Positions 1-17,569 of a stretch of 32,000 nt of DNA are shown here, in pieces (the first letter of the stretch is position 1; every line of letters begins with the position of its first letter). The stretch spans positions 811,007 through 843,006 of the forward strand of contig CAWAJW010000015.1 of NCBI GenBank assembly GCA_963782475.1, written 5' to 3'. The position numbers were made by a program, and so were the translations under genes. Source of the stretch: an uncultured Bacteroidota bacterium (GTDB taxonomy: Bacteria > Bacteroidota > Ignavibacteria > Ignavibacteriales > Ignavibacteriaceae). Below the pieces are notes generated by a model that was not told where the DNA came from, did not search any database, and was given only the letters and a program-made list of their open reading frames with translations.

Positions 1-38
1 CTGATTTATCTTCATTTTATAAACACTTAACTTTAATT

Positions 39-1661
39 ATGAAATTTTACCAAATTATTTTTTCACTGTTAGTTTTATATATAACTGTTCCAGTGCCCCT
101 TTCCGCACAAATAGTATATACGCCCATAAACTCACCCGTGTACGATTACCTTGATCGCCTAGGGACAGAGCATATAATCAATTTAGCCGATGAAGTAAAA
201 CCCTATTCACGCATAAAGATTGCCGAATATTTAAGGAGCTGCAGAAAATAATATAAATAAATTAACCAATGTTGAAAAGGAAGAGCTGAACTGGTATAAG
301 GAAGAGTATGCTCATGAGCTGAATTATCAAAAATGAAAGATGGTTCCTCTACAATTATTCCGATTCATTATTTTCAATCAGAGTCTCTCCTATTCGGGGG
401 CTACGGTATTTCGAGAACCGGCAGCAGTCACGGGCATACCCGCTGGTGGGGATTAAGCAGCTACGGTACAATTCCAATTGGTTCGGCGCCTTCTTTTCTT
501 ACAGGGATATCGGGCAGTTCGGCGAGAATGTAGATCGTGAAAAAAGACTTTACTCCCGATAGAGGATATTTTATAAATGCATGTCGTTGCAGGAGGAATT
601 GAATTCAGCGATGTAAAAGGAGGAGTAAACTTTAACTGGAAATGGGGTGCGGTTTCATTAATTAAGGATGATATAAAATGGGGACATGGAAGATTCGGGC
701 AGCTGATTTTATCCGATAAACCGAATTCATATCCGCAGATAAGATTATTTCTAAACCCTGTAAAATGGCTAAGGTTTTATTATATGCACGGGTGGCTCAA
801 CTCATTGATCCTGGATTCATCTCAAATTTATTATAGCCATTTGAATAGTGCACAGCCTAAAGTTCATCAGCAGTATATAAGTAAATATATTGCTGCGAAT
901 ATGTTAACTGTTACTCCTGTCGATAACCTGGATATAAGCGTCGGTAATTCAGTAGTATACAGCGGAAGATCTGAGACCTGAATTTTTCATCCCCTTTCTT
1001 ATATTATAAAGTGATGGATCATAATACAGGAAGAGGAAATATTGATGATTCAAACGGTCAGATCTATTTTGATATTTCTTCAAGGAATGTAAAACAGTAC
1101 CAATTTTACGGTACCTTCTTTATTGACGTCGGTTCACTTAGAGGTATTCTAAAATCCGATTACCATGAATGGTGGGGAGGATATACTTTAGGAGTAAAGA
1201 GGGTGGATTTATTAATTCCCGATCTGGATTTTACATTTGAGTATACATGGATAAGTCCCTGGACGTACGAGCACAAGTATGATACTGAAACATACAAGCA
1301 TATCGGGTTTGTTCTCGGCGACTGGCTGGGGCAGAATGCCGATCAGCTCCGTGTGCAGGCAGATTACAAGCCGAGCAGACCTTTAACGCTCCACTGTTAT
1401 TATGAAAGAATTAGAAAGGGAGGGCTTGGAGATATTGCTGAAGCATATAAATCTAATGGTATAACAGAACCATTTCTGTATGGACCGGTAAGAAAAGATT
1501 TTGATTTCGGGTTTGGTGCACAATATGAATGGCTGCATGAATTGTTTATAGATTTCAGCTACGAATATTCTAATATATCGGATCAGGATATAGCCAGAAC
1601 CCCGTCATTTTTATTGGGAAAGAAGAATAGTTTCGGACTGACCGTGAGCTGGGGGCTGTAG
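39..1661 (+). pseudogene. Wzi-like capsule-assembly outer-membrane beta-barrel protein, fragmented into at least 4 pieces
   Basis: Four consecutive same-strand ORFs (39-251, 333-533, 577-981, 1011-1661) align colinearly with the paralog at 6182-7708. Shared features: signal peptide plus VY.P...VY.YLDRL N-terminus; WGHGRFGQLILSDKPNSYPQIRL vs GYTKSGNLVLSDKAPSFPYIRI; NPVKWLRFYYMHGWL vs NPISWLKFHYFHAWL; C-terminus ...SWGL. Gaps between ORFs continue the alignment in other frames (RWFLYNYSDSLFSIRVSPI vs RYRLFSYSNNTFKINLSPI). Confidence 0.75.
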
Positions 1662-1706
1662 GGGGTGTGGAAATCGGGAAGATGGGAAGTTAGGAAGATG
1701 AGAAGC

Positions 1707-1832
1707 CTGACACTATGAACCTCATAATGCAATACCTCACTTCTGTTGCGTATCAGCAATCAAGATTTCTCAGTCATACCATTGAAAGCAAATTGGATTC
1801 CTTCTACCTTCGGAAGATAAATCGAAATGACA
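1707..1832 (+). repeat. Module B repeat (ctgacactatgaacctcataatgcaatacctcacttctgttgcg ... taagatttctcagtcataccattgaaagcaaattggattccttc ... gataaatcgaaatgaca)
   Basis: Near-identical copies start at 1707, 2542, 3125, 10647, 15699 and 17037. It is preceded at 1677-1706 by a purine-rich tract that is the reverse complement of the CTTCC tracts seen elsewhere. Confidence 0.85.
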
Positions 1833-1853
1833 GGGATAGCACGCAAGACCTTG

Positions 1854-1991
1854 GGGGCTGACCAAAATGCAGCACAGATTAAACGTCTTTGTTTTGGGCT
1901 TTGTAATCTGTGCGTCTGAAATTAAATCTGAATCATTAATTGTTATATCATATCAAATAATTTACAAAGATTATATTTTTTGGTCAGCCTC
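1854..1991. repeat. Module H: MITE-like / structured element with 12-14 bp terminal inverted repeats (ggctgaccaaaa ... ttttggtcagcc)
   Basis: Outer stem ggctgaccaaaa/ttttggtcagcc encloses an inner 9-bp stem gcacagatt/aatctgtgc. Copies at 1854-1991, 2688-2825 and a shorter one at 10315-10414. Confidence 0.8.
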
Positions 1992-2109
1992 ATTTGGAGT
2001 TTAATAAACGGGAAATGAGGTTAGCGGATAGAATATAATAATTATGTTAAGATGTAATTTTAATAGTTTGGTTACAAATTGATAGATAAGAATACAGATG
2101 AGGGAACAA

Positions 2110-2532
2110 GTCCCCCTTAATAAAGGGGGAACGAAGGGGGTTGTTAAATGAAGATATATTACAAAAATAATTTAAAGAATAAATCCAGAGAATTAAGGAA
2201 TAACAGTACTTTATCAGAAATACTGCTATGGAATGAATTGAAAGGACGTAAAATGCTGGGTTATCAATTCATGCGTCAAAAGCCGATAAATAAATATGTA
2301 GTAGATTTTTATTGCAGCAAATTAAAACTGGTAATAGAAATAGATGGAACCAGCCATTATGGAAAAGAGGAAGAAGATAACATCAGGCAAAAGGAATTAG
2401 AAAAATCAGGATTATCATTTTTGAGGTTTGATGATTTGGAAGTAAAGTTTAAAATGGATGAGGTGTTAAATAAAATAAAAAATTGGATGGAAAAGCACCA
2501 ACAACCCCCTCGCCCCCTTTGATAAGGGGGAC
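2110..2532 (+). mobile_element. DUF559 nuclease cassette bounded by about 35-bp imperfect terminal inverted repeats built from C5/G5 hairpins
   Basis: Left end 2110-2146 is gtcccccttaataaagggggaacgaagggggttgtta. The reverse complement of the right end 2499-2532 is gtcccccttatcaaagggggcgagggggttgttg. By hand alignment 31 of 37 positions match. The left TIR abuts the ATG and the right TIR encodes the last codons (QQPPRPL) and the stop. Confidence 0.65.
2148..2522 (+). CDS. DUF559 domain protein (Vsr-like PD-(D/E)xK endonuclease fold), 124 aa
   Basis: Family-typical pattern: LW..L.GRK..G.QF.RQ....Y.VDFYC...KLVIEIDG..H......D..R...L...G...LRF....V. Confidence 0.85.
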   Translation: MKIYYKNNLKNKSRELRNNSTLSEILLWNELKGRKMLGYQFMRQKPINKYVVDFYCSKLKLVIEIDGTSHYGKEEEDNIRQKELEKSGLSFLRFDDLEVKFKMDEVLNKIKNWMEKHQQPPRPL

Positions 2533-2541
2533 TATTGTACG

Positions 2542-2667
2542 CTGACACTATGAACCTCATAATGCAATACCTCACTTCTGTTGCGTTACAACGATTAAGA
2601 TTTCTCAATCATACCATTGAAAGCAAATTGGATTCCTTCTACCTACGGTAGATAAATCGAAATGACA
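2542..2667 (+). repeat. Module B repeat, copy 2 (start of the 835-bp segmental duplicate of 1707-2541)
   Basis: Same sequence as 1707-1832, offset 835 bp. The duplication continues through module H and the left TIR to 3019. Confidence 0.85.
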
Positions 2668-2687
2668 GGGACGCACGTAAGACCTTC

Positions 2688-2825
2688 GGGGCTGACCAAA
2701 ATGTAGCACAGATTAAACGTCTTTGTTTTGGGATTTGAAATCTGTACGTCTGTAATTAAATCTGAATCATTAATCGTTAGATCATATCATATAATTTACA
2801 AAGATTATATTATTTGGTCAGCCTC
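2688..2825. repeat. Module H, copy 2
   Basis: Same terminal inverted repeats and inner stem as 1854-1991, with a few substitutions. Confidence 0.8.
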
Positions 2826-2943
2826 ATTTGGAGTTTAATAAACGGGAAATGAGGTTAGCGGATAGAATATAATAATTATGTTAAGATGTAATTTTAATAG
2901 TTTGGTTACAAATTGATAGATAAGAATACAGATGAGGGAACAA

Positions 2944-3115
2944 GTCCCCCTTAATAAAGGGGGAACGAAGGGGGTTGTTAAATGAAGATATATTACAAAA
3001 ATAATTTAAAGAATAAATCTTAAGAATTAATTGCCGCTTACGAAAACTTGTATCTTTTTACTTGTATCTTGTGTCTTCAACCGACAACCCCCTCGCCCCC
3101 TTTGATAAGGGGGAC
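2944..3115 (+). mobile_element. ORF-less miniature derivative of the DUF559 cassette (both TIRs retained, ORF body replaced by module E)
   Basis: Left TIR 2944-2980 and right TIR 3082-3115 match those of 2110-2532. The first 13 codons (MKIYYKNNLKNKS, 2982-3020) are retained and followed by a stop. The 313-bp ORF-specific segment (2186-2498 in the full copy) is replaced by about 62 bp of module E (3020-3081). Confidence 0.7.
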
Positions 3116-3124
3116 TATTGTACG

Positions 3125-3250
3125 CTGACACTATGAACCTCATAATGCAATACCTCACTTCTGTTGCGTTACAACGATTAAGATTTCTCAGTCATACCAT
3201 TGAAAGCAAATTGGATTCCTTCTAACTTCGGTAGATAAATCGAAATGACA
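3125..3250 (+). repeat. Module B repeat, copy 3
   Basis: Direct sequence identity to 1707-1832 and 2542-2667. Confidence 0.85.
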
Positions 3251-3489
3251 GGTGTGCATGGCAGTCTCAACGAAATAAAAACGGTTAAAACCGTTCACGA
3301 GAGAAATAACATTTTCTTTAATGAGAACAACCCCGTCATGGTATACTTTGTTTAGCTACCGACGTTTAATCTTCATTTTGTTAGGCAGGTTGAGGCATGA
3401 TTCGTTATTGAATGCTGCACCAGGACAGTCTTCGACAGGCTCAGACTGACAGTATGCTGCGGTCATTGCAGCATGGTGTGATTTCGACG
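3251..3489 (+). repeat. Module F (239 bp), copy 1 of 2; multi-hairpin element
   Basis: Near-identical to 17331-17569. Contains stem aacggtt/aaccgtt, stem atgctgca/tgcagcat enclosing a C-type hairpin (gacagtcttcgacaggctcagactgac), and ctcaac/gttgag pairing. Confidence 0.8.
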
Positions 3490-3505
3490 TATGCAAAGAA
3501 AAAAG

Positions 3506-3583
3506 TGCCGCTTACGAAAACTTGTATCTTTTTACTTTTATCTTGTATCTTTCAAAAGTATCTTTTTACTTTTTTCTTGTACG
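3506..3583 (+). repeat. Module E: T-rich periodic repeat (gccgcttacgaaaacttgtatctttttacttttatcttgt...)
   Basis: Copies at 3020-3081, 3506-3583, 8864-8949, 10543-10600, 16937-16990, 17793-17820, and inverted at 15515-15629. Confidence 0.8.
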
Positions 3584-3600
3584 TTATCACGGGCATATAC

Positions 3601-4269
3601 TTGGTATTGCAAAAAGACACTTCAAAATCAGAAATACTAAAAGAAAATGAATCCTTTAATTTAGGCTTTAAAACTTTTCTTGCTGCATTTTTAGCCACCG
3701 TATTAAGTATCAGATATCTGGATGGTGAGATTGCTCTAAGAGTAATGCATTTTATTCAATCTGTCCATCCAATAAATAAAGTTACTGAAAATATACCCGA
3801 TTTACTGCCCCATTTTGTTGTTGTTGCTACAATATCGATGTGGGCTGTTTTTTTTTACAGGCTGCTCAGGAAAAAATTAGATATAAAAACCCGATTCTTA
3901 ATGCTTTCTGCTACTGTTTTACCGTTTGCATATCTCGCAAAAACAGTATTGAAATTTGTATTTGGAAGAACTTCTCCCCGGCACTGGCTTAAACATCACG
4001 ATCAGCTGTCATTTCACTGGTTCACGCATTGGAGCAGCAGCTTTCCTTCCGGACATATGATCGTATTTGCTGCACTTGGTGCTGCTATTTGGATTTACTA
4101 TCCTCAATACCGGGGATGGGTTTTAACTTTTCTTATTCTGCTGGGAGCAGCGCTAATCGGAACAGATTATCATTTCTTAAGTGATGTAATAGCAGGAGCC
4201 TACCTCGGAGTTTTAACAACATATTCTATAAAGTATTTATTTGAGAAGATAAAAATAAATTTCAGATAA
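3601..4269 (+). CDS. PAP2-superfamily phosphatase (membrane protein)
   Basis: PAP2 motifs KFVFGRTSP ... PSGH ... DYHFLSDVIAG, plus several hydrophobic helices. The ATG-defined ORF starts at 3412, but codons 1-63 are translated repeat modules F/E. There is no ATG between 3454 and 3712. I place the start at the in-frame TTG at 3601 (uncertain). Confidence 0.7.
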   Translation: MVLQKDTSKSEILKENESFNLGFKTFLAAFLATVLSIRYLDGEIALRVMHFIQSVHPINKVTENIPDLLPHFVVVATISMWAVFFYRLLRKKLDIKTRFLMLSATVLPFAYLAKTVLKFVFGRTSPRHWLKHHDQLSFHWFTHWSSSFPSGHMIVFAALGAAIWIYYPQYRGWVLTFLILLGAALIGTDYHFLSDVIAGAYLGVLTTYSIKYLFEKIKINFR

Positions 4270-4352
4270 TAATTGCATATTCAAATTATTACCGGCTTAT
4301 AACCAATGCCGATACTGCATGGCAGGAACCGGGCCTGTATTGACCCAAAAAA

Positions 4353-5974
4353 GTAAACCTCACCCCCGACCCCTCTCCTTATAAAGTAGAGGGGTGGTAT
4401 GTACATTGGAGTGATAAGCAAATATTAGAAATAGTAACATTTTATTACTATCATAGCATCACCTTTTTCCAGACAGAACCTGAAATAAAAAGCTTTATCT
4501 GTCTGCCGGAGACAAGTTGAAAATGAGGTATTGCTTCCTTCTCATTTATAAGGAGAAGGAACGGAAGGATGAGGTTAGTATGCTGCAAAAATGAGGTTGC
4601 TCCCTGTGAAAAGTAAACCTCACCCCCGACCCCTCTCCTTATAAAGTAGAGGGGTGGTATGTGCATTGGAGAGATAAACGATTATATCAAAATATATCTT
4701 TTATTTATAATCTTCACATTTTTCTATTTCTAGACAACATATCAAATTAATAGTTTTTCTGAAAATGAAGGTATTGCTTCCTTCTACTTTATAAGGAGAA
4801 GGAACGAAAAGATGAGGTTAGTAAGTTGTTCAAAAGAGGTTGACAGCCAGTCAAATTAGTTCAAAAATTTTTCTCTAAATATAGATTACATGACTATCCA
4901 CTATAACAAACAATCCGAAAAAACAAAAAGAAGAAAATTAAGACGGAAATCAACTGAAGCTGAAAAACTGCTGTGGGAAAAATTAAGAGGAAGAAAACTT
5001 TCAGGACTAAAATTCAGGCGTCAATATAGTATAGCCCAATTTGTATTGGATTTCTATTGTCCGGAAAAAAGATTTGCCATAGAACTAGACGGCGGTATAC
5101 ATGAGAAAAAAGATGTGAAGAATCACGATGAGAACAGAGATGGTTTCATAGAAGGTTTTGGAATAAAAATAATAAGGATTAAAAATGAATTGGTTCTGGA
5201 TGATATTGATAGTGCGCTCGAATATATAAAGGAGCAAATATAAACTGTGTAAACCTCACCCCCGCCCCCTCTCCTTATAAAGTAGAGGGGTTCTACGCAC
5301 ATTGGAGTGAAAAGCAAATATTAAAGATAGTAACATTTTATTGCTAATCATAGCATCACCTTTTTCCAGACTGAACCTGAAATAAAAGCTTCATCTGTCT
5401 GCCGGAGACAAGTTGAAAATGAGGTTATTGCTTCCTTCTACTTTATAAGGAGAAGGAACGAAAGGATGAGGTTAGTATGCTGCAAAAATGAGATTACTCT
5501 ATCTGAAAGTTAATCTCTGAAAGTTACCTCACCCCCGACCCCTCTCCTTATAAAGTAGAGGGGTGCTATGAACATTGGAGTGATAAGCAAATATTGAAAG
5601 TAGTAACATTTTATTGGTAATCATAGCACCACCTTTTTCCAGACAGAACCTGAACAAGTTGAAAATGAGGTTATTGCTTCTTTCTCCTTTATAAGGAGAA
5701 GGAACGGAAGGATGAGGTTAGTATGCTGCAAAATGAGGTTGCTCCATGTGAAAAGTAAACCTCACCTCCGGCCCCTCTCCTTATAAAGTAGAGGGGTGGT
5801 ATGTGCATTGGAGTGATAATCAAATATTGAAAGTAGTAACATTTTATTGCTAATCATAGCATCACCTTTTTCCTGACAGAACCTGAACAAGTTGAAAATG
5901 AGGGTATTGCTTCCTTCTACTTTATAAGGAGAAGGAACGAAAGGATGAGGTTAGTATGCTGCAAAAATGAGGTT
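4353..5974 (+). repeat. Array I of module A units (about 220-260 bp each): 4353-4598, 4613-4841 (divergent), 5249-5495, 5523-5740, 5755-5974, with a DUF559 gene inserted between units 2 and 3
   Basis: Each unit runs gtaaacctcacccccgacccctctccttataaagtagaggggtggtatg ... ctgtctgccggcagac ... ttccttctcatttataaggagaaggaa ... gatgaggttagtatgctgcaaaatgaggtt. Units 4 and 5 lack the ctgtctgccggcagac palindrome. Confidence 0.9.
4890..5243 (+). CDS. DUF559 domain protein (Vsr-like endonuclease fold), 117 aa
   Basis: LW..LRGRKL.GLKFRRQ......VLDFYC...RFAIELDGG.H......D..R......G...IR..N..V. It is a paralog of 2148-2522. The stop codon is followed 5 nt later by the start of an A unit. Confidence 0.85.
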   Translation: MTIHYNKQSEKTKRRKLRRKSTEAEKLLWEKLRGRKLSGLKFRRQYSIAQFVLDFYCPEKRFAIELDGGIHEKKDVKNHDENRDGFIEGFGIKIIRIKNELVLDDIDSALEYIKEQI

Positions 5975-6181
5975 AGTAACCTCCCAGATAAAAAGATAGT
6001 GTTACCAATGAAGAGTATTAGTCCCTTAATAAAATGGGAAGAAGTGGCTGTTAGATAATATATAATGGTAATAAGGCTCACACTGATTCTCCGGCTTCTG
6101 ATTTTTTGGCTTCTGATAAGGGCTGCCAATACGTATTAATATGTGGTACAAATTGTGATACGAAATCACTGAAATATTATC

Positions 6182-7708
6182 ATGAAAATATTCACCCTGA
6201 TATATTTTATTATAATTTTCAATGCTCCCGCATATTCCCAGGTCGTCTATCAACCGTTATGGCATGATGTGTATAATTATCTCGACCGCTTGAGTCAAAA
6301 AGGGGTAATAGAATATGACGATTTAGTCAAACCTCTCCCCAGGAAATATATTTATGAAAAACTGATTGAAGCGGAAAAAAATTCTGAGCAGTTAACTAAA
6401 TTGGAAAAAGAAGAGCTGATTTATTTCAAAAAAGAATATTTTTTTGAAAGTAAGCTGGAAGGGGATACAGCTCAATATAAAAAATCACCAAATTTTTTCG
6501 GTAAAGATGAAGCAGGCAGGTACAGGCTTTTCTCCTATAGTAATAATACTTTCAAAATAAACCTCAGCCCGATAATCGGTTATCAGCTTACGCTCCCAGG
6601 GAAAGAAAGGAACCAGAATACATGGAACGGGATTTATAGTTATGGATATTTATCTGATTTTTTAGGCTACAGCATGGATTTAAGGGTGCATAATGAGCAG
6701 GGTAATTACCTGGATCCCAATAAATATTTTACACCTGAAGAGGGAGTAATCCCTTCCGCCAGAACCGACCTGGCCTCTCACGAAAACTCTATTGACTACA
6801 GCGAGGTTAAGGGGATGGTATCTGCCGGCTGGGATTGGGGCGACATAATTTTTGGTAAAGATTTCATTACCTATGGGTATACAAAAAGCGGAAACCTGGT
6901 TCTCTCGGATAAAGCTCCATCCTTCCCTTATATCCGTATTGATGTAAATCCAATTAGCTGGCTGAAGTTCCATTACTTCCATGCCTGGCTCGCTTCAGAT
7001 GTTATAGATTCAGTGAATTTTGAAGAGGGGTTACGAACGATATACAGGAATAAATATTTCGCATGGCATTCCATTGTAGTTACTCCTGTGAAAGGACTGG
7101 ATCTTTCAATCGGCGAGTCGGTTGTCTATGCAGACCGGATCGAGCCGGTCTACCTGATACCGGTTATGTTCTTTTTCCTGGCGGACGATTTCTTAAGTAA
7201 TAGAATGGAAGGGAATAAAGGAGATGCTAATTCACAGATCTTTCTCTCGGTCAGCTCAAGGGACCATATAAAAAATACTCATTTATATGGAACTTTATTT
7301 ATCGACGAGCTAACTCTCGCAGGGCTGACGGGTTCTCTTTTGTCAAGTAATCACCATACAATGGGTGGTTCAGTATTCGGTTCAAACAGAGTCAGAACAC
7401 AACTCGGATTTACTTTAGGTGCGTCTGTCGCCGATCTGCCTGTAGAGAACCTGACCCTTACAACAGAATACACAAGAATAAATCCGTTTGTTTATCAGCA
7501 TCACGATCCCGCACAAACCTACACCAATTCCGGGTATATAATGGGAGATTGGCTTGGGTCAAATTCAGATCTCATTTATCTCAATATTAATTATAGAATT
7601 CTAAGGGGGCTGCAGGTAAACCTGTGGGGAGAGTATATCCGCAAGGGGAGTGAGAGCGACAGTCTGCAGTATGCAGATAGCACCAGCCTCCTTTTTTATA
7701 CGGATTGA
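6182..7708 (+). CDS. Wzi-like capsule-assembly outer-membrane beta-barrel protein; the C-terminal about 55 codons continue in another frame to 7875
   Basis: Signal peptide, VYQPLWHDVYNYLDRLSQKGVI N-terminal motif, long beta-rich body. After the stop at 7708 a shifted frame reads QHYKYFGLDLKYEPIHELNINAGFRTNLESDEQEDNSYLTTRTNIFSFSIYYGL, with a stop at 7873-7875. This matches the C-terminal strands of the 39-1661 copy. The shift is at a T6 run near 7690-7700. Confidence 0.75.
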   Translation: MKIFTLIYFIIIFNAPAYSQVVYQPLWHDVYNYLDRLSQKGVIEYDDLVKPLPRKYIYEKLIEAEKNSEQLTKLEKEELIYFKKEYFFESKLEGDTAQYKKSPNFFGKDEAGRYRLFSYSNNTFKINLSPIIGYQLTLPGKERNQNTWNGIYSYGYLSDFLGYSMDLRVHNEQGNYLDPNKYFTPEEGVIPSARTDLASHENSIDYSEVKGMVSAGWDWGDIIFGKDFITYGYTKSGNLVLSDKAPSFPYIRIDVNPISWLKFHYFHAWLASDVIDSVNFEEGLRTIYRNKYFAWHSIVVTPVKGLDLSIGESVVYADRIEPVYLIPVMFFFLADDFLSNRMEGNKGDANSQIFLSVSSRDHIKNTHLYGTLFIDELTLAGLTGSLLSSNHHTMGGSVFGSNRVRTQLGFTLGASVADLPVENLTLTTEYTRINPFVYQHHDPAQTYTNSGYIMGDWLGSNSDLIYLNINYRILRGLQVNLWGEYIRKGSESDSLQYADSTSLLFYTD

Positions 7709-7963
7709 ACCAGCATTATAAATATTTTGGACTCGATCTGAAATATGAACCAATCCATGAATTAAACATCAACGCAGGTTTCAGGACAAACCTAGAATCG
7801 GACGAGCAGGAAGATAATTCCTATTTAACTACTAGAACTAATATCTTTTCGTTCTCAATTTATTACGGTTTGTAGTAAAGGTTAAAGCAATTATTTTATC
7901 ATTGCATTACACTATTTGGAATTACCTCTGCCTCCGGCAGGTAAATCAAAATGACAATGTGCT

Positions 7964-8250
7964 GCGACCAAACTTCCCATCTTCCAAACTTCTGCTTTTC
8001 CGACCTCTGACCTCTGCACTATGACAGTCTTCGACAAGCTCAGACTGACAGGCACCTGCGAACAAACTTCCAATCTTCTAAACTTCCTAACTTCTGCTCT
8101 TCCGACCTCCGACCTCTGTGAGAAATCTTACATTCAACGATTAAGATTTCTCAGTCGCCAATAGATATTCCAGAATGTGCTCCTTCTACCTCCGGTAGAT
8201 AAATCGGAATGACAATGAGACAAGGTTTAAAATCAATTTGTCATTTCGAA
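7964..8250 (+). repeat. Module C/B composite: two CTTCC-rich polypyrimidine tracts, each followed by a hairpin, then a gaatgaca/tgtcattc hairpin
   Basis: Tract 7964-8019, then C hairpin 8023-8049 (gacagtcttcgacaagctcagactgac). Tract 8051-8118, then B hairpin gagaaatctta/taagatttctc at 8120-8152. Confidence 0.8.
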
Positions 8251-8260
8251 TTCCGGCTCA

Positions 8261-8832
8261 AAGGAGAAGGAAGGAAAAGATGAGGTTAGTATGCTGCAAA
8301 ATGAGGTTACTCTATCCGGAAAGTCAACCTCACCCCCGACCCCTCTCCTTATAAAGTAGAGGGGTTCTACGAACATTGGAGTGATAAGCAAATATTGAAA
8401 GCAGTAACATTTTATTGCTAATCATATCATCACCTTTTTCCTAGACAGAACCTGAAATAAAAAGCTTTATCTGTCTGCCGGCAGACAGGTTGAAAATGAG
8501 GTTATTGCTTCCTTCCCCTTTATAAGGAGAAGGAACGAAAAGATGAGGTTAGTATACTGCAAAATGAGGTTACTCTATTTGAAAGTCAACCTCACCCCCG
8601 ACCCCTCTCCTTATAAAGTAGAGGGGTGGTATGTGCATTGGAGTGATAAGCAAATATTGAAAGTAGTAACATTTTATTGCTAATCATAGCATCACCTTTT
8701 TCCTAGACAGAACCTGAAATAAAAAGCTTTATCTGTCTGCCGGCAGACAGGTTGAAAATGAGGTATTGCTTCCTTCTCATTTATAAGGAGAAGGAACGGA
8801 AGGATGAGGTTAGTATACTGCAAAATGAGGTC
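8261..8832 (+). repeat. Array II of module A: partial 3' piece 8261-8308, full units 8323-8571 and 8585-8832
   Basis: Same sequence as arrays I and III, period about 262 bp. Confidence 0.9.
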
Positions 8833-8863
8833 AGCGGATAGGATATAACAATCCCGGAAAATG

Positions 8864-8949
8864 AATTGCCGCTTAAGAAAACTTGTATCTTTTTACTTTT
8901 ATCTTGTGTCTTGTAAAGTATCTTTTTACTTTAATCTTGTATCTTCGAC
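8864..8949 (+). repeat. Module E copy abutting the 3' end of the M24 peptidase gene
   Basis: aattgccgcttaagaaaacttgtatctttttacttttatcttgtgtcttgtaaagtatctttttactttaatcttgtatcttcgac. Confidence 0.8.
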
Positions 8950-8979
8950 TGAATCATTCATCAATGCCCAATCCACACC

Positions 8980-10170
8980 CTATCTTACGATAGGGAACAC
9001 CTCTTTCTGGATCTCCTGTCCCGTCGTCATAACCTTTCCATCGGGAGAAACATATACATCGATTTCACTTCTTATACCGAAATCGGGGAGATAAATTCCC
9101 GGCTCAATTGAAAAGGAGGTGGAAGGTAAAATTAATCTTTCATCGTGGGTTTCATAATTATCCATATTTGCACCGCTGCCGTGAAGTTCGGTAGTGATGG
9201 AGTGCCCTGTCCTATGGAAGAAATATTTGCCGAACCCTGCTTTAATAATTACATTCCTGGCAGCATCGTCCACTTCAAACCCTCGGACATCCTTTCCCTC
9301 TTTAAATCTTGAAGCAACCAGGTTGAAGGCTGTATCCCTTGCTTCGGCGACAACATCAAAAACCCTGCTCTGCTTTTCCGGTATTACATGCTCGGTATAC
9401 CCTGTCCATGTAATATCCGCCCAAACTGCATCACTTTTATCCTGTTTAGCCCAAAGATCAATTAAAACGAGACAGCCCTTATTGATAGCGCTATGAACCT
9501 CTGCTGTCGGCGTATAATGAGGGTTTGAACTATTAGAGTCAACTCCGACGATCGGAGGGAAATCTGTTACAAATCCGTTCTCATTAAATCTCTTCATTAT
9601 AAACTGCTGGACTTCATATTCATTTGTGTTTTTGTCATTTGTCAAACGTTCACTTATAAAATCAAAAGCTTCTTTAACTATTTCAGTCAGTGCTATAGCA
9701 ACGGGACGGTTTTCTTCGAATTGTTCATGAGACCAAACTGCAGCAAATTTTGATATCAGATCGCCGCTGCTTGAAATTTCAAATCCCAAAGATTTTAAGT
9801 ACTCAATTGTCCCAGCGTCAACTTTGGAGATGTAGGGGATATTGTTATTTGGTGAATATTCCATTACAACTTTTTTTGCCGCATGGTTAATTTTATTTAA
9901 ATGCTCATTCAAGGAATCAAAGCTCGAGTATGTATATTTTTCCCCCGGTAAATGGTTTAAATGCCCTGCTTCAATTTCATTCACAATTTTAATAGGAGTT
10001 CCTTTCTTAGGAATAAAATAAAAAAATCTTCTTGTAAGGTGTGATGTTTTGGGGATCTCAAGAATCTCCAGTCCTAAATCATTGCTCCCTCTGAAATCAT
10101 AAATAAGCCATCCGTCAAAATTCAATTTTTGTAAATTGGCCTGGATATTATCTAAGTTAAATTTATGCAT
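8980..10170 (-). CDS. M24-family metallopeptidase (Xaa-Pro aminopeptidase/prolidase-like)
   Basis: C-terminal pita-bread fold motifs: DITWTG, HRTGHSI, SIEPGIY, with a creatinase/prolidase-like N-domain. 396 aa uninterrupted. Confidence 0.8.
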   Translation of the reverse strand: MHKFNLDNIQANLQKLNFDGWLIYDFRGSNDLGLEILEIPKTSHLTRRFFYFIPKKGTPIKIVNEIEAGHLNHLPGEKYTYSSFDSLNEHLNKINHAAKKVVMEYSPNNNIPYISKVDAGTIEYLKSLGFEISSSGDLISKFAAVWSHEQFEENRPVAIALTEIVKEAFDFISERLTNDKNTNEYEVQQFIMKRFNENGFVTDFPPIVGVDSNSSNPHYTPTAEVHSAINKGCLVLIDLWAKQDKSDAVWADITWTGYTEHVIPEKQSRVFDVVAEARDTAFNLVASRFKEGKDVRGFEVDDAARNVIIKAGFGKYFFHRTGHSITTELHGSGANMDNYETHDERLILPSTSFSIEPGIYLPDFGIRSEIDVYVSPDGKVMTTGQEIQKEVFPIVR

Positions 10171-10314
10171 TTAGAATCTCCCGTATCAATAAGTTTTATT
10201 AATATTGAAATAAAGTTAACAAATGGTTAAACTATAAAAAAATATATTGATTTAAATGAAGAGGAGAAATGACGTGAAACAAGAGGTAGAGGATTTTACG
10301 AAATGCACACTCAA

Positions 10315-10414
10315 GAGGCTGACCAAAATGCAGCACAGATTAAACGTTTTTGTTTTGAGACTTGAAATCTGTGCGTCAAATAATTTATAAAGATTATATT
10401 TTTTGGTCAGCCTC
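10315..10414. repeat. Module H, copy 3 (internally shortened)
   Basis: gaggctgaccaaaatgcagcacagattaaacg...aatctgtgcg...ttttttggtcagcctc. Confidence 0.8.
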
Positions 10415-10542
10415 CAACGGAAAGATGAGGTTGGTAACCGGAAATGATATCAGCGGATAGAATATAAATTGGAAGATGGGAAGTTAGGAAGATTAGAAGT
10501 TAGGAATCCGGAAAATGAGAAAAAAAATTAAAGAATATATCG

Positions 10543-10886
10543 TAAGAATTAATTGCCGCTTACGAAAACTTGTTTCTTTTTACTTGTATCTTGTGTCTTC
10601 AACCAACAACCCCCTCGCCCCCTTTGATAAGGGGGACTATTGTACGCTGACACTATGAACCTCATAATGCAATACCTCACTTCTGTTGCGTTACAACGAT
10701 TAAGATTTCTCAGTCATACCAATGAAAGCAAATTGGATTCCTTCGAAATGACAGGGTGTTGCTCGTTCTGTCATTCGACGACTGAAAGGAGGAGAAATCT
10801 TACGTATCAACGATTAAGATTTCTCAGTCATACCATTGAAAGCAAATTGGATTCCTTCTACTTCCGGTAGATAAATCGAAATGACA
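10543..10886 (+). repeat. Composite E + right-TIR hairpin + B + gaaatgaca hairpin + SD-like box + B hairpin
   Basis: Same module order as 16937-17330 and (partly) 3020-3250. The ORF-track ORF 10640-10870 lies entirely within it. Confidence 0.85.
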
Positions 10887-10971
10887 AGGCGTTGTGTCGT
10901 TTCCAAGAAGCATGACTCAGACAGGACAGAGAATCCAAGCGAAATTTTCGTATACACTATCTTTTTCTTTT

Positions 10972-11196
10972 GTACTTTTTTCTTGATAAAAAAGTACTCC
11001 CGATTTTCATCGGGATAAACTCCAAATCAAGACTGCAAATAAATTACTAAAATTTTATTTCATTCCGCTACAGAAAAAGAACTCGTCCCGCCATCTATGA
11101 AGGCAAGAGGCGGGACTCAAACAGCTTTTTCTGTTTAACCTGCCTAGCCGGCAGGCAGGCGCTTCATTCCATAAAATTTTTTACGTAATTTATTTG
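10972..11196. other. Single-copy (within this window) cluster of nested perfect hairpins; candidate structured ncRNA or MITE
   Basis: Stems gtactttttt/aaaaaagtac (10972-10997) and tcccgat/atcggga (10998-11015). About 22-bp AT-rich arms at 11036-11058 and 11171-11196 enclose acagaaaaag/ctttttctgt (11070-11134), gtcccgcc/ggcgggac (11085-11116) and cctgcc/ggcagg (11139-11155). Confidence 0.5.
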
Positions 11197-11449
11197 AGGT
11201 CGAAAAGTCACAATCGTTGATATTTCGTTAAGAAAAGATTTCCCTGTCGCCAATACATATTCCGGAATGTGCTCCTTCGAAATGACAGGGTGTTGCTCGT
11301 TCTGTCATTTCGAATCCCAACTGATACTGTTAAACTTATAGTTGTTGGGTGAGAACTCTTTCGTAAGATTTCTCGCTCATCAATGGGTCATCCAATTTAA
11401 AGTTCGCTCTACCTCCGGTAGATAAATTGAAATGACAATATGCTATGAT

Positions 11450-11885
11450 CAATCTTCCGCTCTCCTATCTTCTGCTTTTCCAACCTCAACCTCTGCACTA
11501 TGACAGTCTTCGACAAGCTCAGACTGACAGAACGGACACAGACTGACGGTGTGTTGTGGTCATATTGAGCTTGTCGAAATATGACCCGCTATTGAGTGTA
11601 GCAGCGGGACAGTCTTCGATAAACTCAGACTGACAGGTGACTTCACAAATCTTCCAAACTTCCGCTCTTCCTAGACAATCAAGATTTCAAGATTCTTTTA
11701 AATTGAATGAATTGTTGAATGATTGAATGAATGAATGATTGAATGTTCGTTGATCTCTGCCTTCCTATCTTCCTAACATCTGCTTTTCTGTTCTTCCGAC
11801 CTCTGACCTCTCACTATACTACGACAGTCTTCGACAAGCTCAGACTGACAGGGCGCTTCCTAACTTCTGCTCTTCTGACCGAAGG
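11450..11885 (+). repeat. Module D composite, copy 1: polypyrimidine tract, C hairpins, ggtcatat/atatgacc and cccgct/agcggg hairpins, TGAA-rich microsatellite
   Basis: Colinear with 13279-13630 and 13871-14187. The microsatellite at 11701-11747 is shorter than in the other two copies. Confidence 0.8.
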
Positions 11886-12064
11886 TACCGCTAACTTTAT
11901 TTTGTGAAAGTTCCATTGTATGATATGCACAAATTGCTTCAACATTAATGAGGGGATTTGGGGATTCAGAGAATAGACTTCGTCTTACAATCTCAATAGC
12001 TCATTGTCTTAGGCTTTCTTCTTCAACCTAAAAATCTTCAATAACATATTGGATTGGCTCTATT

Positions 12065-12556
12065 TTATCCGACCCAGTTTTCTGCTGTGGAATGGAGTCT
12101 TGTAAAATCTTTCATTGCGCTTTCAGTATAATTCTTAAAGCAAACAACAGGCACGGAGGAAAATTTAAATATATTATTGGCAACATTTCCCATCATTGAG
12201 TTCAATCTGCCGGACCATCCATGCGAATTTATTATGATGAGGTCGATATTATTCTTCTCAGAATAACTTAAAATTTCCTTTAATGGTTCCCCGAACTTTA
12301 TTACTTCCGTAATATTTGCGGCCGGGTGCGGAATCTCATGTATAAATTTATTCAATTCTTCCCGTACATTATTTACTTTAATTTTATGCAGATGATCTTC
12401 ATCCACAAGGGAATCCGAACTATAATTCGGTTTAATAACATGCATTAAGTGAAGCAGTCCCCCGCTTTGATTTGAAAGAGTGCAGCCCAGAGTAAAACTA
12501 TGGATTGAATTCTCGGAAAGGTCGATTGGAACAAGTATATTCTTTAAATTCAACAT
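12065..12556 (-). CDS. Universal stress protein (UspA family)
   Basis: ILVPIDLSE N-terminus, HLMHV, and the C-terminal nucleotide-binding-like stretch DLIIINSHGWSGRLNSMMGNVANNIFKFSSVPVVCFK. Confidence 0.75.
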   Translation of the reverse strand: MLNLKNILVPIDLSENSIHSFTLGCTLSNQSGGLLHLMHVIKPNYSSDSLVDEDHLHKIKVNNVREELNKFIHEIPHPAANITEVIKFGEPLKEILSYSEKNNIDLIIINSHGWSGRLNSMMGNVANNIFKFSSVPVVCFKNYTESAMKDFTRLHSTAENWVG

Positions 12557-12576
12557 AACTTACCTCCTTTCAATTA

Positions 12577-12927
12577 TTAAACGGTTAATAGGTCGAGTGT
12601 ATTCTTTACTTCCAATATATCAAATGGTTTGTAAAAAATGGCTTTTACATATTTTCTGATTTTTTTATCAAACTCTTTAAATTCATTTCTATATACGTAA
12701 AGCAGGATTACAGGAATAGTTGTTATATGCTGAATATTTCTACATACACTTTCTGTTTCTGCTGTCGGTTCAGCATCCATCAGAATTATATCGAAGGAAG
12801 TATTTCTTGAAATCAATTCAAAGTCTTTAATATCTGTTGTTAATGTTATATTATACATGTTTTGTAAATACATTAAGAAGCTGAAGCTCATTACAAAATC
12901 TGAACTATATAGGAGAATTTTTTTCAT
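12577..12927 (-). CDS. Stand-alone CheY-like receiver domain protein (atypical acidic pocket)
   Basis: KKILLYSSD ... DIILMDAEP ... PVILLY ... YKPFD layout of a receiver domain. The N-terminal DD pair is replaced by SD. It lies 20 bp upstream of the Usp gene on the same strand. Confidence 0.55.
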   Translation of the reverse strand: MKKILLYSSDFVMSFSFLMYLQNMYNITLTTDIKDFELISRNTSFDIILMDAEPTAETESVCRNIQHITTIPVILLYVYRNEFKEFDKKIRKYVKAIFYKPFDILEVKNTLDLLTV

Positions 12928-13278
12928 TGGTCATAATATTGATGTGTATATAGGTATCAAAGTTTCAATTACTATTTATATGCCAGGAAATGATGAGTCA
13001 GTAAATTCACTTTTTGGAATAAACACCAATGTTCGTAATTGAAGAAGTGCTTTGTTTTCTCTTTATTGCAAAAAGAATTTTTAAGATGTAAGAAAGAGGG
13101 AGGAAGTGAAGTGGGGGATGACCCGTTTCGTAATAAGTTTCTCATTGACAGTCTTCGACATGCATGTTGGGTAGGGATGGTCCGCTGCATTTACATACAC
13201 ATGACAGTCTTCGACAAGCTCAGACTGACAATGCGCGCCTGCGACCAGACTTTCAAACTTCAATTCTATAAGATGTGC

Positions 13279-14402
13279 ACTATGACAGTCTTCGACAAGC
13301 TCAGACTGACGGAACGGACACAGGCTGACGGTGTTTTGTGGTCATATTGAGCTTGTCGAAATATGACCCGCTATTGAGTTTAGCAGCGGGACAGTCTTCG
13401 ATAAACTCAGACTGACAGGTGACTTCACAAATCTTCCAAACTTCCGCTCTAGACAATCAAGATTTCAAGATTCTTTTAAATTGAATGAATGAATTGTTGA
13501 ATTGTTGAATGATTGAATGATTGAATGAATGAATGTTCGTTGATCTCTACCTTCCCATCTTCCTAACTTCCGCTCTTCTAACCTCTGACCTCTGCACTAT
13601 GACAGTCTTCGACAAGCTCAGACTGACAGGGTGCCCGCGACCAAACTTCCAATCTTCTAAACTTCCTAACTTCTGCTCTTCCGACCTCTGACCTCTGTGA
13701 GAAATCTTACATTCAACGATTAAGATTTCTCAGTCATACCAATGAAAGCAAATTGGATTCCTTCGAAATGACAATGTGTCTTTCCACCTTCAGATAAATC
13801 GAAATGACAATATGCTACGAACAAACTTCCCATCTTCCTAACTTCCGCTCTTCTAACCTCTGACCTCTGCACTATGACAGTCTTCGACAAGCTCAGACTG
13901 ACGGAACGGACACAGGCTGACGGTGTTTTGTGGTCATATTGAGCTTGTCGAAATATGACCCGCTATTGAGTTTAGCAGCGGGACAGTCTTCGATAAACTC
14001 AGACTGACAGGTGACTTCACAAATCTTCCAAACTTCCGCTCTAGACAATCAAGATTTCAAGATTCTTTTGAAATTGAATGAATGAATTGTTGAATTGTTG
14101 AATGATTGAATGATTGAATGAATGAATGTTCGTTGATCTCTACCTTCCCATCTTCCTAACTTCTGCTCTTCCGACCTCTGACCTCTGTGAGAAATCTTAC
14201 ATTCAACGATTAAGATTTCTCAGTCATACCAATGAAAGCAAATTGGATTCCTTCGAAATGACAATGTGTCTTTCCACCTTCAGATAAATCGAAATGACAA
14301 TATGCTACGAACAAACTTCCCATCTTCCTAACTTCCGCTCTTCTAACCTCTGACCTCTGCACTATGACAGTCTTCGACAAGCTCAGACTGACAGGGTGCC
14401 CG
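13279..14402 (+). repeat. Tandem duplication of a D/C/B composite: copy 13279-13870 (592 bp), copy 13871-14360 (490 bp), partial third copy 14361-14402
   Basis: actatgacagtcttcgacaagctcagactgacggaacggacacaggctgacgg recurs at 13279 and 13871, and its first part at 14361. The second copy lacks about 100 bp lying between two cttcctaacttc tracts. Microsatellites at 13478-13536 and 14072-14128. Confidence 0.85.
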
Positions 14403-14416
14403 TTGACTATACTGGA

Positions 14417-15421: not shown

Positions 15422-15514
15422 GCATAATTAATAATAGATTAAAAATAAATATTTTCATGGTTTAGTGGAAATTGAGAAGGGAGGTATGGAAAGGGATGTG
15501 TGGTGTTGGATCCG

Positions 15515-15629
15515 GTTGAAGATACAAGATAAAAGTAAAAAGATACTTTTACAAGACACAAGATAAAAGTAAAAAGATACTTTTACAAGACACAAGATAA
15601 AAGTAAAAAGATACAAGTTTTCGTAAGCG
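15515..15629 (-). repeat. Module E in inverted orientation, expanded as a 34-bp tandem repeat x3
   Basis: gataaaagtaaaaagatac recurs at 15528, 15562 and 15596. The element ends with the reverse complement of gccgcttacgaaaacttg. It lies about 95 bp upstream of the PfkB start. Confidence 0.85.
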
Positions 15630-15698
15630 GTACTTTTTTCTTTTGCATACGCTCAACCAGCAGAGCCCTGACAGTCTGAGCTTGTCGAAGACCGTACG

Positions 15699-15791
15699 CT
15701 GACACTATGAACCTCGTAATGCAATACCTCACTTCTGTTGCGTTACAACGATTAAGATTTCTCGGTCATACCATTGAAAGCAAATTGGATT
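15699..15791 (+). repeat. Module B repeat (truncated copy), preceded by an inverted C hairpin at about 15668-15694
   Basis: ctgacactatgaacctcgtaatgcaatacctcacttctgttgcgttacaacgattaagatttctcggtcataccattgaaagcaaattggattc. Confidence 0.85.
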
Positions 15792-15797
15792 CTGTAT

Positions 15798-16912: not shown

Positions 16913-16936
16913 GGATAAAATATGACAATCCCGGAA

Positions 16937-17330: not shown

Positions 17331-17569
17331 GGCGTGCATGGCAGTCTCAACGAAATAAAAACGGTTAAAACCGTTCACGAGAGGAAGAGCATTTCCTTTA
17401 ATGAGAACAACCCCGTCATGGTAAGCTATGTTTAACTACCGACGTTTAATATTCATTTTGTTAGGCAGGTTGAGGCATGATTCGTTATTGAATGCTGCAC
17501 CGGGACAGTCTTCGACAAGCTCAGACTGACAGTACGCTGCGGTCATTGCAGCATGGTGTCATTTCGACG
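17331..17569 (+). repeat. Module F (239 bp), copy 2
   Basis: Near-identical to 3251-3489, including the internal hairpins. Confidence 0.8.

Follow-up and report, generated by a model that had tools for sequence, protein, structure and literature searches.

REPIN/RAYT systems consist of REP-associated tyrosine transposases (RAYTs) and REP doublets (PMC2817692, PMC3116915, PMC3337134, PMC5581495), and share several features with the unit described here, which is built around a small gene of the DUF559 family. In both cases, a small enzyme gene lies between inverted short palindromic repeats, the repeats are dispersed, mostly intergenically, in many more copies than the gene and form inverted doublets that fold as long hairpins, and each enzyme clade is paired with its own repeat sequence. 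A further, probable parallel is that the gene tends to occur once per genome, is inherited vertically and is under selection, with nearby paralogs at the DUF559 loci L018, L038, and L067 as exceptions. The differences concern the enzyme, predicted for DUF559 to be a Vsr-like PD-(D/E)xK nuclease and not an HUH/Y1 (IS200/IS605-like) transposase; the repeat, which is a compound of hairpin and arm without the GTAG tag; the ORF, which in DUF559 often runs into the right repeat; and the enzyme–repeat link, which for DUF559 we infer from sequence.

Two other types of systems are similar in part. BIMEs (bacterial interspersed mosaic elements) of enterobacteria (PMC2817692), intergenic arrays where palindromic units of alternating orientation are interleaved with short conserved modules, resemble the mosaics (B, E, L, R, and R2...L2 combinations) of the window, that is, the whole 32,000-nt stretch of Ignavibacteriaceae DNA analyzed here, although units, modules and host phylum differ and no RAYT is found in the window. 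MITEs and TIR transposons, as well as IS200/IS605 elements, have inverted or hairpin ends and gene-less short forms sharing these ends; in contrast to them, the DUF559 unit has no DDE or HUH transposase and no target-site duplication, and its gene is stable and not multi-copy.

The gene 1 cassette and its emptied copy

Gene 1 (2148–2522, 124 aa; all coordinates refer to the plus strand) belongs to the DUF559 family. The fold check proposed in the earlier note gives a Pfam match to PF04480 with E = 4.6e-32 and 110.6 bits (cut-off 20.6), and structure searches agree with it: profile matches in PDB are 3HRL (E = 2e-26) and 3R3P (I-Bth0305I, E = 3e-4), and the AF2 model (pLDDT 87, below 50 in the tail, residues 120–124) is matched by Foldseek to 3HRL (TM 0.93) and I-Bth0305I (TM 0.81, prob 1.0), with Vsr itself being a weak match (E about 1.3). 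The modeled fold is a Vsr-like alpha/beta one of the PD-(D/E)xK type. Across 41 sequences, D53, D66, and H70 never vary and E64 hardly does, and these are the candidate catalytic residues. Moreover, DUF559 is the only ORF between the flanking motifs, the Pfam scan of the cassette yields no DDE or HUH domain, and PADLOC reports weak nuclease-domain matches alone and no defence system.

The nearest characterized relative, I-Bth0305I, is a Vsr-like EDxHD homing endonuclease, so a selfish-DNA nuclease with the same predicted catalytic fold is known; its gene, however, lies within a group I intron of a phage, and the protein has an additional DNA-binding domain, whereas the DUF559 gene is free-standing, single-domain and framed by repeats. 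This relationship favors an alternative in which the left motif, the gene and the right motif (L–gene–R) form a mobile cassette that moves by itself, as a TIR transposon or as a homing-endonuclease gene inserting into the center of palindromic L-x-R sites, with gene-less L-x-R forms being its MITE-like non-autonomous copies or empty targets. Considering the data below, we regard this alternative as unlikely.

The gene is framed by inverted copies of a compound motif of ~35 nt, built from a C5TT-N4-AAG5 hairpin and a G5TTGTT arm, with the same coordinates and anatomy as originally reported, small corrections aside. The left motif L1 (2110–2145, GTCCCCCTTAATAAAGGGGGAACGAAGGGGGTTGTT) contains the hairpin CCCCCTT-AATA-AAGGGGG (–8.5 kcal/mol predicted for ssDNA), a spacer and the arm GGGGGTTGTT; its distance to the ATG is 2 nt, and not 1 nt as had been stated. 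The right motif R1 (2500–2532, AACAACCCCCTCGCCCCCTTTGATAAGGGGGAC), identified by pattern matches, is L1 inverted with the stop codon inside, and the C-terminal tail QQPPRPL of the protein is translated from it, exactly as the earlier note had it. The right-arm pattern has four matches in the window compared to 0.00 expected by chance, and the hairpin pattern, six compared to 0.11. Altogether, the window has 4 R1, 2 L1, 10 R2, and at least 8 L2 motifs for two DUF559 genes. A target-site duplication was looked for just outside L1 and R1 and was not seen; the outer bases (ACAAG / CTATTGT) prolong the inverted symmetry and do not form a direct repeat, which argues against a mobile cassette.

As RNA, the cassette is predicted to fold into a 5'–3' panhandle with L paired with R (–114.5 kcal/mol, z = –6.5), and in the window AAGGGGG stands 7 nt 5' of the ATG. 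Both features would be expected if the motifs were signals acting in cis on the expression of a nuclease that may be toxic, operating as an mRNA panhandle, via occlusion of the ribosome-binding site by the C-rich 3' arm, or as stabilizing or terminating hairpins, with the dispersed copies being unrelated by-products. We find such an explanation decidedly unlikely, and the Rfam search speaks against it, with no families found in window positions 1–18000 or in 11 related loci and only sub-threshold matches to generic hairpins (miRNA). Sigma-70-like promoter matches around the cassette are not enriched (5 compared to 8.1 expected).

The cassette is a part of a tandem duplication, which had been claimed for 1707–2541 versus 2542 onward and is seen in the self-alignment and repeat families. 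Unit 1 (1707–2541) comprises module B, a spacer module, L1, gene 1, and R1, while unit 2 (2542–3124) comprises module B, the spacer module, a second copy of L1 (2944–2979), a 13-codon stub, module E, and a second copy of R1 (3083–3115), both motif copies being pattern matches. Segment 1707–2185 corresponds to 2542–3019 at about 96% identity, and 2497–2544, to 3080–3127. The gene 1 remnant (2982–3023) consists of the ATG and 13 codons with a stop, and its junction with module E (family D18, 3020–3079) lies at AGAATTAA. Hence the previous description of the second copy (2944–3115) as keeping both motifs and 13 codons, with the ORF body exchanged for module E, is retained, but the lengths of the exchanged segments change from 313 and 62 bp to 311 bp (2186–2496) and 60 bp.

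Further copies of module E are found at 3496, 8857, 10544, and 16934, and two of them belong to dispersed derivatives lacking L1, whose existence near 10543 and 16937 had been reported as well. One of these (10520–10637; family D3, 96%) retains a remnant of codons 6–13 followed by E, R1, and then module B; the other (16934–17027) has E and R1 followed by module B without the 5' remnant of the ORF. The composites span about 10544–10776 and 16934–17166, with the order E, right motif, B.

The local emptied copy results from tandem duplication and recombination at microhomology (8 nt at the junction of the ORF deletion) and not from an independent insertion; its treatment as a MITE-like derivative in the earlier note is not supported in that form, as it sits within the tandem duplication and has a microhomology junction. 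The cassette would have been duplicated in tandem, recombination at the 8-nt microhomology would then have set module E where the ORF body was, and copies of the E+R1+B derivative would have reached new sites near 10.5 kb and 16.9 kb. Spread of this derivative without L1 is not what a mobile cassette would predict.

Gene 2, palindromic arrays, and the ycjD repeat of E. coli

The second DUF559 gene (4890–5243, 117 aa; Pfam, 106.2 bits with cut-off 20.6) is 39% identical to the first one, and in the NJ tree it falls together with YcjD of E. coli. Its left motif L2 (4779–4819) comprises the hairpin TTCCTTCT..AGAAGGAA, a spacer, and then GATGAGGTT, and its right motif R2 (5253–5290) reads ACCTCACCC-CCG-CCCCTCTCC..AGAGGGG. 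Gene 2 fills one L2–R2 junction in an array of R2...L2 units without the gene, about 233–273 nt each (4349–5975). The filled junction aligns with empty R2/L2 junctions, a point in favor of the mobile cassette; these junctions are at different loci, and an allelic pair was not found.

A second R2/L2 array, with module E at its end, occupies 8261–8955, and a third one, with a 377-nt period and adjoining E+R1+B, 15859–16933. In the first 17.6 kb of the window, same-strand mosaic arrays add up to 8.5 kb. They hold one strand whatever the direction of the neighboring genes, which disagrees with a role as cis-acting signals. The window in general is very rich in repeats, including modules B, E, D10, and others without a link to DUF559.

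E. coli ycjD reads into a degenerate motif. In its 3' flank, 45 nt of the gene's 3' end are duplicated, and next comes a dispersed repeat, CCCCTCACCC-TAA-CCCTCTCCCC-AGAGGGG, which is nearly identical to R2 of the window and shares its arrangement of arm, spacer, and hairpin. The median number of repeat copies per E. coli genome is 15. The gene is present in about 62% of genomes with the median of one copy, and its single-copy state is evidence against a mobile cassette. In a spread sample of genomes, the median number of repeat copies is 17.5 with the ycjD locus and 3 without it. Phylogroup confounds this difference, and about 12 copies are still found in O157-type genomes that lack ycjD.

We tentatively take the ycjD-adjoining repeat to be BoxC, which was first described beside envM/fabI. 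BoxC is a known E. coli repeat family of 56 bp with about 22–32 copies (PMC2267715), and the ycjD-adjoining repeat is dispersed and fits it in both size and copy number as listed there. With this putative identification, BoxC would have almost the same sequence as R2. BoxC is not known to have been tied to any enzyme, and no such link was found in the literature searched.

Homologous cassettes and gene-less motif copies

Our set of homologs comprises 84 genes and spans more than 10 phyla. L is present upstream of 38 of them, R at or after the stop codon of 32, and both motifs flank 23 genes, while motifs in the wrong orientation are seen upstream of seven and downstream of four genes. Hence the paired inverted motifs, suggested as a unit in the earlier note, are conserved with the gene far beyond the host genome. 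The order is reversed, with R upstream and L downstream, in L018, L051, and L052, and at a few genes, e.g., L041 and L044, a recognizable motif is absent. The tail QPPxPL, that is, the translated R motif, is kept in homologs down to 64% identity. L stands anywhere between 2 and about 100 nt from the ATG, ruling out the G-run of L as a general ribosome-binding site and, with it, a general role of this kind under the cis-signal explanation.

Many annotated “endonuclease domain-containing proteins” have proline- and glycine-rich N- and C-terminal extensions, which are translated repeats.

The motif type follows the protein clade and not the host, and paralogs from the same genome have different motifs, as in L067, L016, and the window itself, where gene 1 has the C5TT/G5TTG type and gene 2, the L2/R2 type. 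The architecture is nevertheless shared by the different motifs of other DUF559 clades, gene 2 and E. coli ycjD among them. Several protein clades whose motifs differ in sequence show the same precise placement, with L a few nucleotides before the start and R over the stop. These observations bear on a further possibility, that REP-like repeats are moved by another enzyme or by recombination, and DUF559 genes merely reside in repeat-prone intergenic DNA. The extreme repeat content of the window, with modules such as B, E, and D10 unconnected to DUF559, and the small nested hairpins inserted in motif spacers (L001, L002, L048) would agree with it. Still, we consider such passive association highly improbable: it does not account for the precise and oriented placement in several clades and more than 10 phyla or for same-genome paralogs each having its own motif type, and in E. 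coli a given gene would have one of about 20 repeat copies within 300 bp by chance with a probability of about 0.003.

Several features of the homologs could be expected of a mobile cassette. The terminal motifs are perfect or nearly perfect inverts, with identical 29-mers on either side of the gene in L047 and L068; the phylogenetic spread is wide, homologs from different phyla being about 60% identical; and in some genomes two or three nearby paralogs are observed (98% identity in L018, 89% in L038, also L067; local range 84–98%). On the other side, no close cross-phylum nucleotide matches were found, and since the best inter-genome matches all stay within related lineages, recent transfer between phyla is unlikely.

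Moreover, the cassette occupies one syntenic locus in six Ekhidna species, with flanks about 75% identical, and syntenic loci are also found in the Bacteroidales and Marinimicrobia sets. In Ekhidna, the spacer DNA is unalignable, and the motif stems are intact in most species, the exceptions being decayed L in L033 and partly deleted R in L035. The DUF559 gene at this locus is under strong purifying selection (dN/dS 0.04–0.13, dS from 0.6 to >2). Both synteny and selection argue against a mobile cassette, while conservation of motif stems at a stable orthologous locus would be consistent also with cis-acting signals.

Most motif copies are not associated with the gene. In a metagenome sample, 120 motif-bearing loci were identified, and the DUF559 gene is present in 3 of them and absent in 117. 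These loci contain 173 motif copies, of which 149 are intergenic. The 173 copies include 91 singlets, 6 fused hairpins, and 36 doublets (22 of the L-x-R and 14 of the R-x-L type). The doublets are predicted to fold as ssDNA with –26 to –28 kcal/mol (z about –6), and one doublet family shares a 57-nt upstream head with the full L062 cassette. The ORF-less L-x-R versions of the unit, noticed initially in the window, are therefore numerous, and their existence as such fits a mobile cassette; however, empty doublets far outnumber filled ones, and active homing should erase the empties. No direct repeats were seen around the metagenome doublets when looked for, and neither GTAG nor CGTC tags are present at the hairpin foot in motif sequences.

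The excess of loci without the gene, along with doublets and arrays, is left unexplained by cis-acting signals, and the dispersed copies face either way equally often relative to co-directional genes (31 versus 31), which likewise counts against such signals. Phage carriage was also considered and rejected, as just 20 motif matches were found in 2.9 million viral contigs, none of them beside a DUF559 gene.

A proposed nuclease with cognate repeats

The relation between gene and repeat is closer to REPIN/RAYT than to a transposon with its MITEs. We suggest, with a probability of about 0.5, that the unit comprises a nuclease and its cognate family of short palindromic repeats, following the REPIN/RAYT logic with a PD-(D/E)xK enzyme. 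This reading is preferred because the motif and the gene are conserved together, gene-less copies are in excess, each protein clade goes with its own motif type, and the gene is stable and selected; the repeat beside ycjD, the mosaic arrays of the window and the relationship to I-Bth0305I speak for it as well. Points against it are the reversed motif order in L018, L051, and L052, the genes at which no motif is recognizable, the nearby paralogs in some genomes, the phylogroup effect on E. coli copy numbers, and the panhandle predicted for the RNA. A mobile transposon is disfavored because target-site duplications were not found and the gene is stable. Of the autonomous/MITE-like relationship proposed in the earlier note, the gene-less L-x-R forms remain, but the behavior of an autonomous transposon does not, given synteny, selection, single-copy ycjD, and no target-site duplication.

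The proposed unit would be a widespread three-part one, in which a small DUF559 gene has a compound repeat on either side, in inverted orientation. Every repeat is formed by a G/C hairpin, a short spacer, and a G-rich arm of 8–10 nt whose complement lies across the gene. Copies of this repeat without the gene are far more numerous and occur as singlets, L-x-R and R-x-L palindromic doublets, and mosaic arrays. The DUF559 gene would be a resident host gene, vertically inherited and selected. [quoted passage not shown] The enzyme–repeat link in this scheme is a putative one, and the compound repeat is found in many bacterial phyla, with E. coli probably among the hosts.

A broader proposal is put forward more tentatively: DUF559 proteins could supply the enzyme so far lacking for a whole class of G/C-rich compound palindromic repeats, constituting a second, HUH-independent REP-like replicator that operates via a Vsr-like enzyme nicking folded DNA. 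To this class we would assign BoxC of E. coli, paired with ycjD, together with related variants and the C5TT/G5TTG repeats found in Ignavibacteriota, Bacteroidota, Planctomycetota, and Nitrospirota. No prior description of an association between DUF559 and repeats was found in the literature on DUF559, ycjD, BoxC, RAYT, and Vsr-like proteins.

Translated repeats explain an annotation artefact, the odd terminal extensions of endonuclease domain-containing proteins. The main question is open to direct testing in E. coli, since some of its genomes naturally have ycjD and the rest lack it. DUF559 is a very large family with no function assigned, including E. coli YcjD and a protein with a solved structure from Neisseria, and the origin and enzyme of BoxC-type repeats have been unknown for decades. 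If true, the pairing of nuclease clades with repeats across more than 10 phyla would give a function to both, and the combination of a resident enzyme with non-autonomous palindromic repeats would have evolved at least twice, from unrelated catalytic folds.

Compound motifs around the DUF559 genes

DUF559 gene 1 (2148–2522, + strand, 124 aa) matches the Pfam profile PF04480 (DUF559) with E = 4.6e-32 and is framed by inverted compound motifs, as the earlier note had claimed and as coordinates, the Pfam match and alignments bear out. The left motif L1 (2110–2145, GTCCCCCTTAATAAAGGGGGAACGAAGGGGGTTGTT) is close to the ATG, with 2 bases between them rather than the 1 nt initially given, and the right motif R1 (2500–2532, AACAACCCCCTCGCCCCCTTTGATAAGGGGGAC), an inverted copy of L1, holds the final seven codons and the stop. 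Both consist of a 7-bp G/C hairpin, a 3–6-nt spacer and a 10-nt arm (GGGGGTTGTT on the left, AACAACCCCC on the right), and the motif patterns are found in the window far over chance (4 matches vs. 0.00 expected, and 6 vs. 0.11 expected). The suggested identity of the product, a Vsr-like PD-(D/E)xK nuclease, holds, because a profile of 41 homologues matches two PDB entries, 3HRL (a Neisseria "endonuclease-like protein", E = 2e-26) and 3R3P (homing endonuclease I-Bth0305I, catalytic domain, E = 3e-4), and the AlphaFold2 model (pLDDT 87) superposes on these structures with TM 0.93 and 0.81, respectively. Weaker structural matches are PvuRts1I/AbaSI, an R2 retrotransposon chain, TnsA and Vsr. The fold is shared with a homing endonuclease, but the intron/intein context is not. 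The PPRPL C-terminal tail (pLDDT <50 in the model) is best regarded as a side effect of the ORF running into R1; a QPPxPL tail is kept in homologues down to 64% identity, and in one annotated homologue the N-terminal extension IPLIKGGIKGVV is the translated L motif.

DUF559 gene 2 (4890–5243) shares 39% identity with gene 1 and is framed by another motif pair in the same layout: L2 (4779–4819) comprises the hairpin TTCCTTCT..AGAAGGAA, a spacer and GATGAGGTT, and R2 (5253–5290), ACCTCACCC, a spacer and CCCCTCTCC..AGAGGGG. Gene-less R2...L2 units form three tandem arrays (4349–5975, 8261–8955 and 15859–16933; periods 233–377 nt) with gene-less L2–R2 junctions of about 40 nt throughout, and gene 2 with a short leader fills exactly one such junction.

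Cassettes in other genomes

Scanning one genome per species yielded 356 relatives, of which the best 80 loci were examined; these span Ignavibacteriota, Bacteroidota, Nitrospirota, Planctomycetota (anammox bacteria), Acidobacteriota, Marinimicrobia, Zixibacteria, Cloacimonadota and others. Among the 84 genes with sufficient flanks, the L motif lies within about 120 nt upstream in 38, R is at or just past the stop in 32, and both are present in 23; the reversed orientation is seen upstream in only 7 and downstream in only 4. Both arms are identical 29-mers in one Ignavibacteria (L047) and one Zixibacteria (L068) locus. These data show an L–gene–R cassette that is general rather than local.

In the neighbour-joining tree, the large C5TT/G5TTG clade never occurs with other motif types, while a middle clade has CCCCTC[CT] hairpins and GGGGTG[GT]GT arms in the same L–gene–R layout, and its spacer frequently encloses a second hairpin. 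Since paralogues sharing a genome (in the window and at loci L067 and L016) each have their own motif type, the type tracks the protein, not the host; exceptions are loci L018, L051 and L052, where the order is reversed, and a few genes with no motif. A merely passive co-location of repeats and DUF559 genes is improbable, as placement is precise, oriented and clade-specific.

Small extra hairpins, e.g., CCGGCGAAGC-TTTA-GCGAAGACGG, are nested in the hairpin–arm spacer at L001 745–775 and L002 1903–1933, as well as in the flanks of L048, L026/L029 and L030/L032; in some clades they occupy both sides in mirror order. A same-clade DUF559 gene at locus L149 (reverse strand, ~200–350 of the cassette) is split by an element of about 150 nt with its own inverted ends GTAACCGTTCACAG...CTGTGAACGGTTAC, which appears to be an unrelated MITE.

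The cassette lies between the same neighbour genes in six Ekhidna species, with flanks about 75% identical, and the coding sequence has dN/dS of 0.04–0.13 at dS from 0.6 to >2. Spacer DNA is unalignable, yet the L and R stems are mostly intact, loops and spacers being variable (exceptions: the decayed L of L033 and a partial deletion of R in L035). A solo L-type motif between R and the next gene is present in two of these species and absent from the others, so small motif copies are gained and lost around a gene that persists. Syntenic sets are also observed in Bacteroidales and Marinimicrobia. Judged by these comparisons, the gene is probably a stable resident, a behaviour resembling that of RAYTs, unlike insertion sequences (PMC5581495; bioRxiv 10.1101/2021.07.10.451892).

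Gene-less copies and repeats of the window

Metagenome contigs scanned with the R motif gave 120 loci with 173 motif copies, and only 3 of these loci contain a DUF559 ORF. The copies form 22 L-x-R (gaps 3–66 nt) and 14 R-x-L doublets, 6 fused arm–hairpin–arm units and 91 singlets; 149 of the 173 are intergenic, with no orientation bias relative to co-directional genes (31 vs. 31). In viral contigs motif matches are rare (20), none of them beside a DUF559 gene. A conserved 57-nt upstream head, TTGTATAGGAATTTTCATTTTATTTATGCGG, is common to the Planctomycetota locus L062 (head at 2900–2956), where the cassette has the gene, and to one family of doublets, which are thus gene-less versions of the cassette unit. 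Besides L062, loci with this promoter-like head number about 15 in the metagenomes (L085, L087, L116, L131, L166, L172, L183, L196 and others); in L087 it precedes another hairpin motif type.

As single strands the doublets fold at –26 to –28 kcal/mol (z about –6). The cassette as RNA folds into an L–R panhandle (z = –6.5), consistent with a purely cis-acting RNA role of the motifs; we nevertheless consider such a role unlikely, as it leaves the dispersed gene-less copies unexplained.

The tandem duplication described earlier, with a second copy keeping both terminal inverted repeats and 13 codons, is confirmed by global alignment (1707–2185 vs. 2542–3019, ~96%; 2497–2544 vs. 3080–3127). This stub keeps L1 (2944–2979), the ATG with 13 codons and then a stop, and R1 (3083–3115). 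The swap of ORF for module E stands, its sizes being corrected from 313 and 62 bp to 311 and 60 bp. The stub/module E junction falls on AGAATTAA, a sequence that the gene (codons R-E-L) shares with the beginning of E. The further composites of E, R1 and module B lacking L1 are indeed present (~10544–10776 and ~16934–17166), the copy at 10520 retaining a remnant of codons 6–13 and that at 16934 being E+R1+B only. Given the stub within the tandem duplication, the junction on AGAATTAA and the later copies lacking L1, the order of events was duplication, microhomology-mediated replacement, and onward copying of the derivative without its left end.

The earlier note had read the gene and its ORF-less copy as an autonomous and MITE-like pair. 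An autonomous mobile unit, be it a transposon or a homing cassette, with MITE-like derivatives now seems unlikely: the loci are syntenic, the gene is under selection, target-site duplications are absent, and many empty doublets persist.

Self-matches in the window are 458 direct vs. 52 inverted, all of the latter involving one block (15513–15695). Nearly all modules are on the + strand, irrespective of how adjacent genes are oriented (window 1–17640), and repeats constitute 8.5 kb of the first 17.6 kb, with almost none in 17.8–32 kb, an overall picture similar to enterobacterial BIMEs (PMC2817692). Module E (3022–3077, 3496–3551, 8857–8912, 10544–10599, 16934–16989; inverted at 15513–15651) contains GTATCTT-type short direct repeats, lies just upstream of a PAP2 gene (~3600, +) and a gene starting at 15421 (–), and may carry a promoter. 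Module B (family D12; 1799–1833 and 11 further copies) ends in a small hairpin with compensatory changes between copies (TCTACC..GGTAGA vs. TCTGCC..GGCAGG), which suggests selection for the fold. The 39-nt repeat GACAGTCTTCGACAAGCTCAGACTGACAG (3419–3457, 8018–8056, 13 copies in 11497–14399, and 17499–17537), whose translation in spurious ORFs reads ...FDKLRLT..., is dispersed as a module of its own and has no evident connection to DUF559. ORFs 39–251, 577–981 and 1011–1661 resemble fragments, separated by frame shifts, of a paralogue of the 508-aa Wzi/OMP-like gene (39–1661 vs. 6182–7708; the last fragment has 37% identity over 154 aa), due either to a pseudogene or to homopolymer errors of assembly.

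E. coli ycjD and the proposed nuclease–repeat system

The DUF559 protein of E. coli is YcjD, which clusters with window gene 2. In K-12 (locus L201, NC_000913.3 1351040–1351830) a degenerate G/C hairpin overlaps the ycjD 3' end, read along the coding strand; after it come a 45-nt second copy of that 3' end and then a dispersed repeat, CCCCTCG-CCCCTCT-GGGG-AGAGGG-TTA-GGGTGAGGGG, whose reverse complement is almost the same as R2. [quoted passage not shown] The repeat may belong to the BoxC family, which was first described beside envM/fabI, a link that would tie the two together. Its size and copy number fit that family, whose elements are 56 bp long and have 22–32 copies (PMC2267715).

The repeat is present in all 5426 of 5426 complete E. 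coli genomes (median 15 copies, maximum 29), and ycjD, once in 3378 of the 5426, being replaced by eefRABCD in the others (PMC12817139). Among 59 chromosomes sampled at even spacing, the median copy number is 17.5 with the ycjD locus vs. 3 without it (p = 6e-9), a difference confounded by phylogroup; O157-type genomes lacking ycjD keep about 12 copies.

The best-supported reading, with a probability of about one half, pairs a resident DUF559 nuclease with a population of compound palindromic repeats cognate to it. The nuclease would recognise the folded or cruciform motif and nick at it, and repair or template switching would copy the short modules. Such a system would work like REPIN/RAYT, but the enzyme is not HUH/Y1 and the GTAG tag is absent. 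We found no description of a DUF559–repeat link in the literature searched. The finding is of high interest, since it offers a function for DUF559 and an origin for BoxC-type repeats, and the system can be tested in E. coli.
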